This document shows, one piece after another, positions 6,843 through 13,213 of a stretch of 42,308 nucleotides of DNA. Every line of letters begins with the position of its first letter. The first letter of the stretch is position 1. Under the pieces are notes generated by a model. It worked only from the letters and a program-made list of their open reading frames with translations. It made no database searches and was not told the origin of the DNA. The position numbers and the translations under genes are program-made. The DNA comes from Nitrospinota bacterium (lineage in GTDB: Bacteria > JADFOP01), in contig JADFOP010000015.1 in assembly GCA_022562795.1 (NCBI GenBank), positions 1-42,308 on the forward strand, in the 5' to 3' direction.

Positions 6843-7400
6843 ATGAAACGCCACAGAGGGCCGGATCAGATACGAAATTTACTGGTTCCGATCGCCTTGT
6901 CCTGCGCCCTCCTTCTTTTTCTAGCAGGGCCCGTCGCCGCCGAGCCCGTCAAGATCGGTTACGTCGACATTCAACTAGTCATTGATGAGTCTACTCTAGG
7001 CCAGCAGGCCAATGCCAAGCTCCGAAAGGATTTTGAGCGTCGGGCCGCTGAGTTGAAGAATCTGGATAAAGAACTCGAAAAGGTGCGAAAGGAGCTGGAT
7101 TCCAAAGGTTCGGTGATGAGCGTTGAGCGAAGACGGCAGATGGAAGAGGAATTCCGTAGAGACCGACGGGACTTCAAGCGGGCTGACCGGGACAACAGGG
7201 AAGAGTTCAACATCAAGCGCAAGCAGCTCTTAGTCGATATATTGCCTAAGATTGTCAAAGCAGTCCAGGCTATCGGGAAGGAACGGGGCTACACCCTCAT
7301 CCTCCAGAATAAGCCAGATATTCTATTATACCTGGCCGACCGCGTGGATGTGACCAGCGAGGTCATCGCGCGGCTCAACGCCGAAGCCCCCGCCCAGTGA
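6843..7400 (+). CDS. skp: OmpH/Skp periplasmic outer-membrane-protein chaperone
   Basis: Signal peptide, KIGYVDIQ, a long coiled coil, IGKERGYTLIL and VDVTSEVIARLN. GAGGAG precedes ATG 6843. Confidence 0.9.
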   Translation: MKRHRGPDQIRNLLVPIALSCALLLFLAGPVAAEPVKIGYVDIQLVIDESTLGQQANAKLRKDFERRAAELKNLDKELEKVRKELDSKGSVMSVERRRQMEEEFRRDRRDFKRADRDNREEFNIKRKQLLVDILPKIVKAVQAIGKERGYTLILQNKPDILLYLADRVDVTSEVIARLNAEAPAQ

Positions 7401-8083
7401 GGAGCCGGAGGGTGACCTCCAGCAAGATGACCCCACACGGATGCCCCTCCTCCGAGATGCGCACCATCCCTCCGCCTTCTTCGGCTCCCTTGAACACAGT
7501 ATGCGCTTGTCTTGTGGTCGCCCTCTTGGTGATAACGGGATGCGCTGGCAAGAAGAAGGCCGTTTCAGCCCCGGCCCAGGACCCGGCGCCCCAGGCCGCA
7601 GTCAAAACCTCTCCGCCCGCTTCAGCCAGCGTAGAAGCGGAAGCCAAACCAAGCATGCTGGCCCGGCTGAACCCGTTCGGCAAGCGAAAAGCGAAGGTTG
7701 CCGAGCCCTCTCAACCTACCCAAGAGGAACCAGAGCCCCAGGCCAAGATAAAGCGAAAGCAAGGGATGCTCAGCCGGTGGTTCAGACGTAGGCCCAAAAC
7801 ACTGCCGCGGGCGACTCCCAAGGTCCTTGAGAGGCGGAGCGCAACGACCGCCAAAGGCGAGGTCTCCCCGCCCCCCTTCGAGTACAAAGATCTTGAGCTA
7901 TCCCTTGGGGAGACGACGAAAGCCCACATCATCGCCATCTTCGGCAAACCCGAACACACCTTCTTCAGCGAGGGTGCCGAGGAAATCCTAATCTACCGCC
8001 GCCTCCGCAGAATCGACTCCCTATACATCTTCCTCGACAGCCAGGGGTTGGTTAAAGACTACATTATTACCAAGAGACAGTGA
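7397..8083 (+). CDS. Putative lipoprotein with Pro/Ala/Lys-rich linker and C-terminal SmpA/BamE-like domain; start uncertain
   Basis: A hydrophobic stretch ends in the lipobox ITGC. The C-terminal LSLGETTKAHIIAIFGKP...LIY...LYIFLDSQGLVKDY resembles the SmpA/OmlA pattern. Confidence 0.6.
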   Translation: MRSRRVTSSKMTPHGCPSSEMRTIPPPSSAPLNTVCACLVVALLVITGCAGKKKAVSAPAQDPAPQAAVKTSPPASASVEAEAKPSMLARLNPFGKRKAKVAEPSQPTQEEPEPQAKIKRKQGMLSRWFRRRPKTLPRATPKVLERRSATTAKGEVSPPPFEYKDLELSLGETTKAHIIAIFGKPEHTFFSEGAEEILIYRRLRRIDSLYIFLDSQGLVKDYIITKRQ

Positions 8084-8092
8084 GGGCCTTAC

Positions 8093-8962
8093 GTGAAGAG
8101 AATAAACCTGCTCACCGAAGGCCACGGCCTGCGCTACGCCCCGGCTCAACCAATCTCAGATGAGACAACCCCTCATTCTGCCTGGCGTCGAGGACCAAGG
8201 TCGCCACGCAGAGGGGCTGGTAAGCCTCTCGTGGCTCTCGCCTTGATTGTTCTCTTGGCCGGAGGGGGGTGGTGGGTCTATCAAGAATTCGGCCCGTGGG
8301 GTCTTCGTCTTAAGTCTCTCCGCCAGAGCCTGGTTGGACTGATGCCCTCTAAGCCCCCAGGCGCCCCACCCTCGGCGCCTACGCCTAAGCCACCTGAAGC
8401 GAAAGCGCCACAACCGCCGGCCGCCGCCGCACCCTCCCATCCCCCGCCGGGTGTCAAGGCGGCCCAGGTGGGCCGATGGTATCGTTCAGACCGGGCGTAT
8501 CCCTTCTCCATTCTCGTGGCCTCATTCCGCAAGGAGGCTTCAGCGGCGGCCTTCGCCGGGAGCTTGGCCTCGGCCGGCCACCCGGTCACCGTTGCCCCAA
8601 CGAACCTCGGCGCGCGGGGACGATGGCATCGGGTAGTCCTCGTCCGGTACGGGGCCAGTAGCGATGCTAGGAAAGCCGCCGCCCTTCTCAAGGGCAAGCA
8701 ACCAATTACCGACACGCTCGTCCTCCAGTTGCCCTATTCTGTCGAGGTAGGACGGGAGCGGGAAAAAGCGGCCGCTGAGGCTGCCCGTGCCGCACTCGCC
8801 TCAAAAGGGTTTCTGGCCCATATCTTTCCCGAAGCGGCGGGCCCTGACGAGCCGGTGACCTTCCTCCTACTGGCGGGAGCCTTTTCCTCCAAGGGTCAAG
8901 CAGAGGCCTTCGCCACCACCCTCAAGCAAGCCGGCCTTGAGGCCAAAGTCGTAATCCCGTAG
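8093..8962 (+). CDS. Membrane-anchored SPOR-domain (peptidoglycan-binding) protein
   Basis: One TM helix, a Pro-rich linker, then two SPOR-like repeats (FSILVASFRKEASA...WHRVVLVRY and FLLLAGAFSSKGQAEAFATTLKQAG). Confidence 0.8.
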   Translation: MKRINLLTEGHGLRYAPAQPISDETTPHSAWRRGPRSPRRGAGKPLVALALIVLLAGGGWWVYQEFGPWGLRLKSLRQSLVGLMPSKPPGAPPSAPTPKPPEAKAPQPPAAAAPSHPPPGVKAAQVGRWYRSDRAYPFSILVASFRKEASAAAFAGSLASAGHPVTVAPTNLGARGRWHRVVLVRYGASSDARKAAALLKGKQPITDTLVLQLPYSVEVGREREKAAAEAARAALASKGFLAHIFPEAAGPDEPVTFLLLAGAFSSKGQAEAFATTLKQAGLEAKVVIP

Positions 8963-8970
8963 CCGAGCAG

Positions 8971-9009
8971 AAAAAAAACCCCACCGGGCCCGCACGGAGC
9001 CCGGCGGGG
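8971..9009 (-). terminator. Intrinsic terminator of the 9067-9399 gene; possibly bidirectional
   Basis: Minus strand: CCCCGCCGGGC pairs with GCCCGGTGGGG (11 bp, one G-U) and is followed by T8. Confidence 0.85.
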
Positions 9010-9066
9010 ATAATTGCAGGAATGTGACAGAGCCAGTCTAGCTATCGGGGCTCGGCTGGCTACTGG

Positions 9067-9399
9067 TTACTGTGACTTGCTGAGGTCGACCCCATCTACC
9101 GGGCTGCTCAGCCAGCCAAAGGGGAAGGTCAGAATCTGGAAGATCCCGACGAAGAAGCGTCCTGGCAGCATGAATATGCCCTTAATCAGCCCCTCGACGA
9201 GCGAGTCCATAAAGGGCCTGGGCTGCTCGGCCAGTCGTTCACCAGCGCCTTCCTCCAACGACATGCCGGAAATTGTGAGGTTCTTGATCCCCAACTCCAG
9301 CTTTTTAAGCGAGTGACCTATATCGATCTGTGCTAAGGCGACGGTCGGGACGGCGAGCATTGATAAAACCACGGTCATTGCAATCAGCTTCTTTATCAT
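9067..9399 (-). CDS. Small exported/membrane protein resembling the TIGR04073 (exosortase-system-associated) family
   Basis: AAAGGAGGAGG RBS and a signal peptide ending ALA. KKLELGIKNL...GLIKGIFMLPGRFFVGIFQILTFPF matches the family pattern as I recall it. Confidence 0.65.
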   Translation of the reverse strand: MIKKLIAMTVVLSMLAVPTVALAQIDIGHSLKKLELGIKNLTISGMSLEEGAGERLAEQPRPFMDSLVEGLIKGIFMLPGRFFVGIFQILTFPFGWLSSPVDGVDLSKSQ

Positions 9400-9779
9400 C
9401 TTTTGTCCTCCTCCTTTCACCCTATTATTACCTAAGGCATACAAGTGCCTTTCAATCACCCCGCGCCCTTGGCCCACCGGCAACGGGGATCAACAAGATA
9501 ATATGAGGGGGATTGGGTAGCCCCCTCCGACGGTCGTCCCTATTTCAGGCCGCCATCGTCAACTATGGATGTTTGGTGTGTGGCTTTCGTTCGGGAGTAA
9601 TTCTGACCTTGGAGATGTCAACATCGCGGGGTGTAGCGCCCGCGGTGACGCTCCCTGGCCTTTTCTCCCACGTCAACGCCCTGCGATGTCCCCATGGTGT
9701 CCACCACCCACACGAGGGCGTTGCCCCATCCATTCCTCCACCTACTAACAGGTCACCAGTTGGAAGGCGAAGGACTTAA
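9400..9779 (-). ncRNA. Candidate long structured 5' leader or ncRNA; no family recognised
   Basis: At least 8 complementary stem pairs, including nested long-range helices, between a clear promoter and the ATG at 9399. Confidence 0.5.
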
Positions 9780-9784
9780 GTGGC

Positions 9785-9813
9785 CTTATAACACACCCTG
9801 GAAAACCATGCAA
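9785..9813 (-). promoter_or_regulatory. Putative sigma70 promoter driving the long leader and small protein
   Basis: TTGCAT-17 nt-TATAAG with a TGn extension. Confidence 0.6.
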
Positions 9814-9873
9814 GCGTTTTTTCGTAGTATCGAGAGCCAAGCGCAAAAAGGGGAACCGGCGGTCTGTATTCGC

Positions 9874-11334
9874 TCAGGGGTTAGACATCGCCCGATAGAG
9901 CTGCTCCTCTCTTGCGGCCTCTCGAACGAAGCCCAGGCGGTTGTAAATGACCGAGAGGTTGAAATGGGCATCGGGCAGGTTGGCGTCGTGGGCCAAGGAT
10001 TTTTTAAGCGCCGCAACGGCCTCTTCGAGCCTTCCTGCGTGGGCCAGGGCCGCCCCGAGGTTGAGGTGAGCCTCAGCGAGAGACGGGTCGATGGCGACCG
10101 CCTTATTGTAGGCGTCAATTTCCTCGGCCCGGCGCCCCATCTCACCGTATACGATACCCAAGTTGACGTAGGCCCTGGTGTGACGGGGGTTTTGGGCCAA
10201 GGCGGCGCGCAAGTCGGCCACCGCTTCCTTATAACGCTTAAGGCCATGGAGAGCCACCCCTCGGTTGACAAGCGCTTTGATGTGGCCGGGCTGCTGGGCT
10301 AGAACCGCATCGACGGTCTGTCGGGCTTCCTCATACGATTCGCGCCTAAGGAGGTTGACACCCAGGTTGTATCGGGCCTCTAAGTCGTCGGGATCGAGGG
10401 TCAGGGTACGCCGGTAGGTCGCTATGGCCTCATCGATACGGTAGCCAGGCCCGTAACGGACCCCCTCGGCGTTATGCTCGTAGGCCACGGCCAGATTGTA
10501 TGCGGCATCGGAGTATGTGGGGTCAATGGCCAGAGCCTGCTGGTAGGCGGCCACGGCCTCATCAACCTTCCCTTGTCGGCGCAGCGCCAGCCCCAGATTG
10601 TTGGCAGCCGCCGCGTTTCGGGGGTTGAGCTCCAGGGCACGGCGGTTGGATGCGATGGCCTCTTCGTAGCGGCCCAGGTGGGCCAGCGCCCGGCCCCGAT
10701 GAAAGTGGATGAGAGCCTGGCTCGGCTCGATGGCCGCCGCCCTGTCGTATGACTCCAATGCCGTGGACCATTGCGCCTTGGCTGCGTAAGCGGCTCCCAA
10801 GTTGACGTAGGCCTCCACCAGCTCCGGCTTGATCTCAATCGCCCGCTGAAGTCTTGCGATGGCTTCATCCAGCTTGCCCTGATTGGCGGCCACCGCCCCC
10901 AGGTTGAGGTAGGCCTCGGCCATGTAGGGGTTCTGAGAAAGGGCTTGCTGAAAAGCGGCCTCGGCCTCGGTGGAGCGGCCCTGTCGGGCCAAGACCGAGC
11001 CCAGGTTGACGTAGCCCCGGGCGAGGGAAGGGTCGGCCTTAACGGCCCTTCGGTAGGCGGCTTCCGCCTCTGGAAGCCGGCCCTCCCGGTCGTTGATCAC
11101 CCCAAGGCTGAAGAGCGCCTGTACGTGGGACGGGTCGGCGGCGACAGCCGCCTCGAAGGCCTTCCTGGCATCTTTACCCCGGCCTTCTGCGGCCAGCGCT
11201 ACCCCCTGGCGGTAGAGGCTCTCGGCCGACGGCGCCTCGGCTCCCGCGACGGATCCCCAAGCAAGCACCAAGATGAACAGGCATGCGAGAGATCTGCGCA
11301 AAGCAGCCTCCTTTGAAGCGGCACGCTCACTCAC
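9874..11334 (-). CDS. Exported all-TPR protein (about 12-13 repeats)
   Basis: Signal peptide followed by repeated 34-aa AY.NLG...G...EA...Y..AL...P units. Confidence 0.92.
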   Translation of the reverse strand: MSERAASKEAALRRSLACLFILVLAWGSVAGAEAPSAESLYRQGVALAAEGRGKDARKAFEAAVAADPSHVQALFSLGVINDREGRLPEAEAAYRRAVKADPSLARGYVNLGSVLARQGRSTEAEAAFQQALSQNPYMAEAYLNLGAVAANQGKLDEAIARLQRAIEIKPELVEAYVNLGAAYAAKAQWSTALESYDRAAAIEPSQALIHFHRGRALAHLGRYEEAIASNRRALELNPRNAAAANNLGLALRRQGKVDEAVAAYQQALAIDPTYSDAAYNLAVAYEHNAEGVRYGPGYRIDEAIATYRRTLTLDPDDLEARYNLGVNLLRRESYEEARQTVDAVLAQQPGHIKALVNRGVALHGLKRYKEAVADLRAALAQNPRHTRAYVNLGIVYGEMGRRAEEIDAYNKAVAIDPSLAEAHLNLGAALAHAGRLEEAVAALKKSLAHDANLPDAHFNLSVIYNRLGFVREAAREEQLYRAMSNP

Positions 11335-11887: not shown

Positions 11888-13213
11888 ATGATGTTTTCGC
11901 TCCACACCGGACCGTGGCGAGCTGCGCTGTTAGGCACTTTCGTGGTGGGGCTCGCTCTTTCATCCGCTTCAGCCGCAACCCCCACTCCCAGGCCCGTCGC
12001 CTTGCTGCCTTACAGTGGGGTAATCAACCCCGTCGCAAGTGAATACGTCGACAAGGGTCTAGAAAAAGCCCGCGCCTTGGGCGCCCAAGCCCTCGTACTA
12101 CAACTCGACACTCCCGGCGGCCTCGATAAATCCATGCGTCTGATCATTAAGTCCATGCTGGCAAGCCCCATCCCGGTGGTGGTTTACGTCGCGCCCGCAG
12201 GGAGCAGGGCAGCCAGCGCCGGGGTCTTCATCACCATGGCGGCCCACGTTGCGGCTATGGCGCCGGGCACCAACATCGGCGCGGCCCACCCAGTGGCCCT
12301 GGGCGGGGGTAAGATGGACAAGACCATGATCGAGAAGGTGGAGAACGACGCGGCGGCTTACATTCGCTCCCTGGCCGAACGATGGGGCCGGAACGCCGAC
12401 TGGGCCGAGGAGGCCGTCCGCAAGAGTGTGTCCATCCAGGCCTCCGAAGCCGTCGAGAAAGGGGTGGTCGACCTCCTGGCGCCGAGCCTCGAGGAGCTGC
12501 TGGCTAAGATCGACGGCCGCGCGATCCAGGCGGGCGGCCGGACCGTTACCCTGGCCACAGCCGGGGCGCCGGTCGTGACCGTCTCCATGACGCTCAAGCA
12601 ACGCATCCTCTCGTTCCTGTCCCACCCCAACGTTGCCTACCTCCTCATGCTGCTCGGCTTCTACGGCATTTTCTTCGAACTCTCATCGCCGGGGGCTCTC
12701 TTTCCTGGCATTATCGGGGGGATTGCCATCATTCTGGCGGCCTACGCCCTCCAGCTGCTCCCGGTCAACTGGGCCGGGCTGGCGCTGATGGCCCTAGCCC
12801 TCGTCCTCTTCCTCCTAGAGATTAAGGTTCCCAGCCACGGGGCGCTGACCATAGGCGGAGTAGTCGCCCTTACGCTCGGCAGCCTCATGCTCTTTGACTC
12901 CCCTGACCCCCTCCTTCGGGTCTCGCTCAAAGTTATCATCCCGGCGGTGGTTGTCACCAGCGGGTTCTTTATTTTCCTCGTTGGCAAGACGGCCCAGGCC
13001 CACCGGGCGCGGGTAACCACAGGCCGCGAGGGCCTCGTGGGGGCAGAAGGGATAGTACGGAAGTGGGCCGACGGCCAGGGCACTATCCTGCTTAGGGGTG
13101 AGCTCTGGAAGGCCGAGAGCCAGTCGGCCCTCGTATCAGGCCAGGAGGTGACCGTGACCGAGACAGACGGCCTGACGCTCACCGTCACTCCTCCAGAAGG
13201 AGAACTCAAATGA
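11888..13213 (+). CDS. nfeD: NfeD (long form): ClpP-class membrane serine protease, TM region and C-terminal OB fold
   Basis: [33 protein letters not shown], a TM bundle, GELWKA. Confidence 0.93.

Follow-up and report, generated by a model that had tools for sequence, protein, structure and literature searches.

Several kinds of long structured RNA known from bacteria resemble, in part, the element described here. The ompA-type 5′ untranslated regions (UTRs) are stabilisers of the mRNAs of abundant envelope proteins, riboswitch and attenuator leaders are represented by the cobalamin, lysine, M-box and T-box types, and the OLE, GOLLD, ROOL and raiA RNAs are widespread, strongly covarying and mostly independent transcripts. 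We analysed a leader of about 380 nucleotides (nt) on the minus strand of contig JADFOP010000015.1 (assembly GCA_022562795.1), a stretch of 42,308 nt that we call the window, from an uncultured marine-sediment bacterium of the Nitrospinota (JADFOP01). The leader occupies the interval from 9400 up to a promoter at 9813 and precedes a gene for a small secreted or envelope protein; it belongs to the broad kind of long structured bacterial 5′ UTRs.

Like the ompA-type leaders, it is long, has a 5′-proximal stem-loop followed by more hairpins and a strong ribosome-binding site, precedes a small envelope or secreted protein gene, and is part of a monocistronic unit with a strong terminator. Unlike them, it is about three times longer, contains a 170-nt branched domain and has no sequence relation to them, and its stabilising effect is something that we infer. 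The size of that domain (domain II below), the junction architecture, the position within a 5′ UTR and the presence of alternative pairings with an anti-Shine-Dalgarno-like tract recall the riboswitch and attenuator leaders; however, our leader has no Rfam match, no terminator-type platform and no recurrent gene association, and it is found in one genus only. It shares with OLE, GOLLD, ROOL and raiA a length of several hundred nt, several helices and the lack of a known function, but it is continuous with a coding sequence, narrowly distributed and weakly covarying, and the models of those RNAs do not match it.

We found that the uncatalogued 5′ leader is real and that its core structure is moderately supported. 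With slightly better than even confidence, we read the interval as a long, partly structured, lineage-restricted and cis-acting 5′ UTR of one small mRNA, which would act on the stability or translation of that mRNA. The comparison rests on two species and one near-identical lineage, too few sequences for proper covariation statistics. The genome holding the window is called G000, the sole genome of the same genus G001 and the sole genome of the same class G002; these three species-level genomes make up the lineage in our reference set, and of the 150 reference relatives all except G001 and G002 share only the domain with G000. The parts of the unit, in the order of the minus strand, are as follows.

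9781 to 9814, minus strand: promoter block, 34 of 34 nt identical between G000 and G001, with the −35 region, the whole 17-nt spacer, a TG and the −10 region inside
9734 to 9774, minus strand: P1, a 5′-proximal hairpin in which UCCUUCGCCU (9774–9765) pairs with AGGUGGAGGA (9743–9734)
9565 to 9733, minus strand: domain II, Y-shaped, about 170 nt, made of a closing helix (9731–9725 with 9576–9567), hairpin A and arm B
9674 to 9723, minus strand: hairpin A, basal stem CAACGCCCU/AGGGCGUUG
9592 to 9670, minus strand: arm B, closed by UGGGAG/CUCCCG, with nested helices and a hairpin loop, GCGCUACACCC, identical in G001
9572 to 9591, minus strand: joining strand GAACGAAAGCCACACACCAAAC, rich in C and A and left unpaired by the predicted minimum-energy and consensus folds, identity 0.75
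9505 to 9558, minus strand: hairpins D (9558–9528) and E (9527–9505), their junction spanned by GACCGUCGGAGGGG (9535–9522), identical in G001
9434 to 9490, minus strand: hairpins G (CCCCG/CGGGG core, 9488–9459) and H (9451–9434)
9400 to 9417, minus strand: A-rich linker and Shine-Dalgarno sequence GGAGGAGG (9414–9407), a strong ribosome-binding site upstream of the ATG at 9399–9397
9067 to 9399, minus strand: gene for a 110-residue protein with an obvious signal peptide, weakly TIGR04073-like (exosortase system-associated)
8979 to 9009, minus strand: intrinsic terminator, a 13-base-pair (bp) stem followed by eight U

The minus strand runs from the stop codon of a gene for a 486-residue TPR-repeat protein (9874) through a gap of 474 nt to the ATG at 9399, the stop codon ending at 9067 and the terminator at 9009–8979. 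The promoter proposed in an earlier, sequence-only reading of this DNA, TTGCAT (9813–9808) and TATAAG (9790–9785) separated by 17 nt, is present on the minus strand with no mismatch; the pattern occurs once in the window, where 0.02 matches are expected by chance, and in 2 of 100 shuffled sequences. A generic sigma-70 scan of the region called no sites, this one included, since the last T is missing from TATAAG and only the TTG of the −35 region matches. A TG two bases upstream of TATAAG makes an extended −10, and the pattern would place +1 at about 9781–9776. Because all 34 nt of the promoter block, the spacer included, are identical between the two species although about 38% of four-fold-degenerate sites differ, the alignment suggests a regulator-binding site that overlaps the promoter (9781–9814). 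The spacer also contains a small palindrome, TGGTTTTCCA. Inspection by eye for sigma-54, sigma-32 or a second, proximal promoter revealed nothing convincing or conserved.

G001 carries both the leader and the small gene, the latter split over two short contigs. Measured from the first base past the −10 region up to the ATG, the two leaders have the same length, 382 nt. The aligned leaders are identical at 262 of 389 columns (67%) and are interrupted by seven indels of 2, 2, 2, 2, 2, 1 and 3 nt, which indicates that the leader is non-coding, with no conserved reading frame. Of three parts compared, domain II is the best conserved (identity 0.73), followed by the 3′ half (0.65) and the P1 region (0.54). 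Around the gene, both G001 contigs resemble assembly joins: in C7 (L006, 1–1020) the 3′ part of the small gene is coupled to DNA that matches window positions 7188–8064 out of order, and the first 33 nt of C230 (L002, 1–54) match the middle of an NfeD-like gene (window 12311–12343).

All ten stems that had been listed from the letters alone are present in G000 at the coordinates given. In G001, the basal stem of hairpin A keeps 9 of 9 pairs, two of them through wobble changes that are possible on the minus strand only, and GAUGG/CCGUC and the CCCCG/CGGGG core of hairpin G each keep 5 of 5; UGAC/GUCA keeps 4 of 4, with an A-U to G-U change (read by eye). One pair is lost in each of CGCGGG/CCCGCG, GAGGGGG/CCCCCUC and AAGGCA/UGCCUU. 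In hairpin H, one pair is lost and the others are kept only via G-U wobbles. The long-range stem that had been drawn between 9733–9727 and 9571–9565 is present in G000 and loses two outer pairs in G001. For the GGGAG/CUCCC helix, the proposed register (9655–9651 with 9597–9593) loses one pair in G001, whereas the alternative UGGGAG/CUCCCG (9670–9665 with 9597–9592) keeps 6 of 6, so the former register is probably wrong. Arm B further contains one double change, G-C to C-G at 9655/9611, and the apical part of hairpin A differs between G000 and G001, with two double changes. P1 loses 4 of 10 pairs in G001 when compared column by column but re-forms there in a shifted register; folded locally (leader bases 1–52), it reaches −18.4 kcal/mol in G000 and −22.2 kcal/mol in G001, so that, although identity here is 54%, both species retain it as a stable hairpin. 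It begins 4–7 nt past the inferred, unmapped +1.

To quantify conservation of structure, we folded the two leaders together with RNAalifold and compared the result with 150 column shuffles of the alignment, which are also the reference of its z-scores; the z-scores of single sequences further below are against dinucleotide-preserving shuffles. The minus-strand consensus fold has −89.5 kcal/mol (z −3.51, 0 of 150 shuffles as good) and a structure conservation index (SCI) of 0.584, against 0.491 ± 0.041 in the shuffles, 4 of 150 of which reach it. On the plus strand, the consensus fold has −73.9 kcal/mol (z −2.79) and an SCI of 0.524, which 13 of 150 shuffles attain. These energies support the proposal that the minus strand is marked by G-U pairs. 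Among the 88 consensus pairs, 65 are unchanged, 7 differ on both sides and 16 on a single side; most of these 16 convert a pair to or from G-U, which is compatible with the minus strand only, and the A-U to G-U changes in hairpin A would give C·A mismatches on the plus strand. When substitutions were redistributed among like bases (2000 draws), the minimum-energy fold of G000 was found to keep 90 of 121 pairs in G001, against 77.7 ± 3.8 in the null (4 of 2000 as good). The corresponding plus-strand tests were null in both directions, that is, for the folds of G000 and of G001. The two species have in common 22 possible uninterrupted helices of at least 6 bp, compared with 10.4 ± 4.0 for shuffled alignments; many of them involve promiscuously pairing G-rich and pyrimidine-rich tracts.

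Folded singly, the minus strand of the leader (9400–9780) reaches −148.1 kcal/mol (z −1.98, 2 of 100 shuffles as good; z −2.46 in a second run with 40 shuffles). Eight coding segments of 381 nt from neighbouring genes range from z −1.62 to +1.13, and as benchmarks from the same genome the RNase P RNA has z −3.32 and the 6S RNA z −6.30. Domain II of G000 (9735–9563) has z −2.85 (1 of 200 shuffles as good) on the minus strand and z −1.62 on the plus strand. These energies suggest moderately more structure than in coding sequence and less than in a bona fide structured RNA. The leader therefore folds about two standard deviations better than its shuffles, as the sequence-only reading had anticipated, and better than the coding segments too, but not strikingly so; of the multi-junction RNA in which most of the interval was said to be paired, several helices are kept in G001, and the folding energy backs the picture as a whole only to that extent.

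We then looked for the locus in public sequencing runs. The sampled words of 9067–9873 are present at 80–94% in fourteen DNA runs, which come from at least seven studies of marine or other sediments, and at 10–28% in six metatranscriptome runs. Contigs of four RNA runs from four studies were compared over 8900–10050, with the following coverage.

X15: one 690-nt contig, 9031–9710, bridging the boundary between leader and coding sequence by hundreds of bases
X16: one 630-nt contig, 9080–9706, bridging the same boundary by hundreds of bases
X17: a 256-nt contig, 9507–9762, wholly inside the leader
X19: a 358-nt contig, 9050–9404

Leader and gene are thus contiguous in material from the RNA libraries of two studies, and the contigs say nothing beyond that. 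None of the contigs from the four runs covers 9797–9874, although such coverage holes prove nothing. The X19 contig and a divergent relative in X17 end at about 9401–9408, near the ribosome-binding site; we read these ends as assembly breaks at the strain-variable sites 9405 and 9407, and a start or processing site there is possible.

The lineage in these libraries is about 96–97% identical to the window. The X16 contig differs from it at 19 positions: the coding sequence has 7 (over 320 nt), 9400–9589 has 12 (over 190 nt) and 9590–9706 has none (over 117 nt). Together with 9521, which is changed in X15 only, the 12 leader differences of X16 give 13 substitutions for this lineage, and 6 of the 13 fall at positions that are unpaired in the consensus. 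Those at 9510 (G-C to G-U) and 9555 (U-G to C-G) retain their pairs on the minus strand only, and that at 9464 (U-G to U-A) fits the CCCCG/CGGGG register of the sequence-only reading. Because substitutions at 9535 and 9528 lie inside the 14-nt block GACCGUCGGAGGGG, this block is not invariant. A loose end in X16 runs into a leader that is G001-like yet distinct, which indicates that further relatives exist in nature.

How the leader might act is suggested by its 5′-proximal pyrimidine tract, UCCUUCGCCUUCC in G000 and CCCUUCAUCCUCC in G001, which differ by transitions only. The tract has three purine-rich partners, with these predicted energies.

5′ tract with the local P1 strand: −18.4 or −19.7 kcal/mol in G000, −22.2 in G001
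5′ tract with the mid-leader block CCGUCGGAGG at the D/E junction: −13.7 kcal/mol in G000, −24.2 in G001, there with ten perfect pairs
5′ tract with the ribosome-binding site: −18.8 kcal/mol in G000, −11.9 in G001

The ribosome-binding site had been described as unpaired; in the full-length ensemble of G000 it is instead predicted to pair with the 5′ CU-rich tract (P about 0.95), and in the ensemble of G001 its partners are mixed and weaker. In our favoured reading, a monocistronic mRNA of about 800 nt would extend from the promoter (9813–9785) through the leader of about 380 nt and the small secreted or envelope protein gene to the terminator (9009–8979). P1 would form first during transcription, which would leave the A-rich, strong ribosome-binding site free, and P1 together with the compact, Y-shaped domain II (9733–9565) may protect the transcript and hold the 5′ pyrimidine tract off the purine-rich ribosome-binding site, allowing high-level translation. 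Were P1 to open, the tract could cover the ribosome-binding site, an alternative that is predicted to be strong in G000 and weak in G001. We favour a stabilising, tract-occupying leader because P1 is the feature that is stable in both species; an effect on stability or translation, and any switching, is a prediction from the modelled folds.

Several observations weigh against this reading, and some of them favour an unlikely alternative in which the leader is a largely functionless transcribed spacer, with only the promoter and the ribosome-binding site under selection, a structure that arises from 56% G+C and from G and pyrimidine tracts, and a conservation that reflects the short distance between the congeners. 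Leader identity (0.67) is close to that of the four-fold-degenerate sites of three flanking genes (0.55–0.64), so much of the 3′ half may be nearly neutral, and in the X16 lineage this half has substituted faster than the coding sequence (12/190 against 7/320, p 0.03). Single-sequence folding lies only about two standard deviations beyond shuffles (z about −2), and double compensatory changes are not enriched (4 observed, 4.4 expected). The favoured reading is further weakened by the plus strand of the leader, which folds better than the minus strand (z −3.35), by domain II of G001, which is no better than chance (z −1.19, 20 of 200 shuffles), and by the fold of G001 itself, which is not kept in G000 (78 of 128 pairs, 79.8 expected). 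In the near-identical lineage, consensus pairs are broken by 4 of the 13 substitutions, at 9407, 9521, 9528 and 9535; the 5′ tract pairs with the ribosome-binding site at −18.8 kcal/mol in G000 but at only −11.9 kcal/mol in G001; the transcription start site is a prediction from a sequence pattern; and the contigs show neither strand, RNA ends nor level, and RNA libraries may contain DNA. A spacer, however, does not sit well with a length of exactly 382 nt in both species, with 0 of 117 substitutions in domain II against 12 of 190 in the 3′ half (Fisher p 0.004), with the retention of the G000 fold beyond random placement of substitutions (4/2000) or with the consensus fold at z −3.5, and beyond the promoter block the alignment with G001 deteriorates, to about 46% (by manual column count) over approximately 65 nt upstream.

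It is also possible, although rather unlikely, that the leader is a sensor, in which domain II binds a small molecule or a protein and acts as a riboswitch-like or protein-dependent translational switch by setting which partner the 5′ tract takes: its strand in P1, the CCGUCGGAGG block or the ribosome-binding site. We regard as distinctly unlikely the more specific proposal that domain II senses via its stacking on P1, with the tract locked, opening D/E through CCGUCGGAGG, or covering the ribosome-binding site. Domain II is aptamer-sized, three-way shaped and the most constrained part of the leader, with no substitution in 117 nt in the X16 lineage; the 3′ strand of P1 adjoins its closing helix, the two species share the loop GCGCUACACCC without change, and the three purine-rich partners of the tract are of comparable energy. 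Yet the leader matches none of the known riboswitch families, domain II lacks a canonical expression platform downstream, the preferred alternative partner of the tract differs between the species, and the excess of helices of at least 6 bp may reflect low-complexity pyrimidine and purine tracts. Other TIGR04073-type genes, from six genomes, have no such leader, and so no association with a gene class points to a ligand. A small RNA of about 270 nt, separate or processed, is in our judgement very unlikely; it would comprise the 5′ part of the leader between about 9778 and the foot of hairpin E (near 9505), be released by premature termination or cleavage and act in trans or as a decoy. In its favour, the X17 contig is confined to 9507–9762, with one end inside the 3′ strand of hairpin E, and this G+C-rich hairpin has a U-rich stretch after it in G000, but contig ends are not RNA ends and the contigs of two other studies cross 9505 into the coding sequence. 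Hairpin E was not called as a terminator by a scan of 8800–10200, which on the minus strand called only the gene's own; its tail has 4 U in the first 8 nt in G000, and in G001 its stem is 5–6 bp with the U run displaced about 7 nt downstream. Hairpin E is, from these features, not a convincing terminator; we rate attenuation or a separate 270-nt RNA low, and the genome holds no second copy or target-like match for such an RNA.

Searches for known families and homologues place the leader in this genus. The sequence-only reading had noted no signature of tmRNA, RNase P, T-box, cobalamin or c-di-GMP riboswitches, and an Rfam 15 cmscan of the whole window bears this out, with 0 matches at gathering thresholds; a permissive scan of 9000–10000 (4227 models, E up to 10) gave only a spurious 13-bit match to Yar_1 on the plus strand. 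The leader is neither the RNase P RNA (C50:22269–22686, 309 bits) nor the 6S RNA (C43:6771–6952, 107 bits) of the genome. It is single-copy in the 2.15-Mb assembly of G000, where nhmmer found the leader itself only and a short-word BLAST search only chance matches of 12–24 nt. Among 40 relatives, BLAST returned G001 and two chance matches of 23–26 nt; no leader homologue was found in G002, a protein-guided scan of the contigs of all reference species gave only the G001 contig, and a covariance model built on domain II recovered, from 151 genomes, only its two training sequences, G000 and G001. A protein scan of metagenome contigs gave, among the matches listed, L007 only, a spurious 15-residue match that we set aside.

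The sequence-only reading had proposed a search for homologues upstream of TIGR04073-like genes; nhmmer found none at nine TIGR04073 loci from six genomes. The upstream gaps of these other TIGR04073-type genes are 12–142 nt, with one locus of about 230 nt up to a divergent gene, and the comparison indicates that the long leader is specific to this small gene in this genus. G000 also has a true TIGR04073 member, at C7:123168–123386 (L039, 51.2 bits), whose 142-nt upstream gap is unlike the leader. Because no homologue was found outside the genus, to call the leader the best candidate for a new system, as had been done, is too strong. The narrower claim of an uncharacterised leader RNA fares better: the interval is non-coding, lies behind a conserved promoter, has no Rfam match and is contiguous with its gene, and it is the elaborate structure that is only moderately backed.

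Other explanations of the interval were considered and rejected. Open reading frames (ORFs) of 56 residues on the minus strand and 88 on the plus strand have no Pfam match, and their frames are not kept between the species, so that neither an upstream ORF nor a pseudogene was retained. A further short ORF in G000 (9729–9673, 18 codons) starts at an AUG at 9729, 5 nt after GGAGG; by eye, its first 5 residues (6/7) match an 82-codon ORF of G001, after which the frames diverge, and conservation of an RNA hairpin accounts for the shared bases equally well as coding does. A CsrA sponge was discarded, the leader having about 11 GGA motifs where roughly 9 are expected (by eye), which is no enrichment.

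The mRNA of the small protein is apparently abundant. The protein scores 29.1 bits against TIGR04073, below the NCBIfam cut-off of 50, is without a Pfam family, and has 11 relatives only (65–96% identity) among 5.8 billion clustered proteins. In a language-model search, its nearest Atlas clusters were small Omnitrophota proteins annotated as hypothetical or, in one cluster, as "Exosortase family protein", and its AlphaFold model (mean predicted local distance difference test score 56.7, three helices) is too poor for a structure search. A literature search found no paper on TIGR04073, and nothing relevant in those parts of the literature on Nitrospinae and sediment metatranscriptomes that it reached. 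The reading frame of the small gene is shifted for about 5 nt in the lineage of X15, X16 and X19, where one nucleotide is inserted after 9312 and one is missing at 9317; this place coincides with variable residues just past the signal peptide in the protein alignment. The upstream 486-residue TPR protein (9874–11334) exceeds the NCBIfam cut-offs for MamA (204 against 200 bits) and PilW (163 against 154) and also scores, under the cut-off, on the PEP-CTERM TPR lipoprotein PrsT; these matches are probably generic TPR cross-matching.

As it stands, the leader is a candidate that neither opens nor closes a standing question. If domain II did act as a sensor, the leader would represent an undescribed class of riboregulator, gating the synthesis of an abundant small envelope protein in a marine-sediment lineage that is almost unsampled. 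A functional leader would be an uncatalogued cis-acting RNA whose gene's message is assembled in the sediment metatranscriptomes of several studies. It would also be an example of a very long and branched 5′ UTR from a small genome (2.15 Mb), in which an intergenic stretch of 474 nt is costly.

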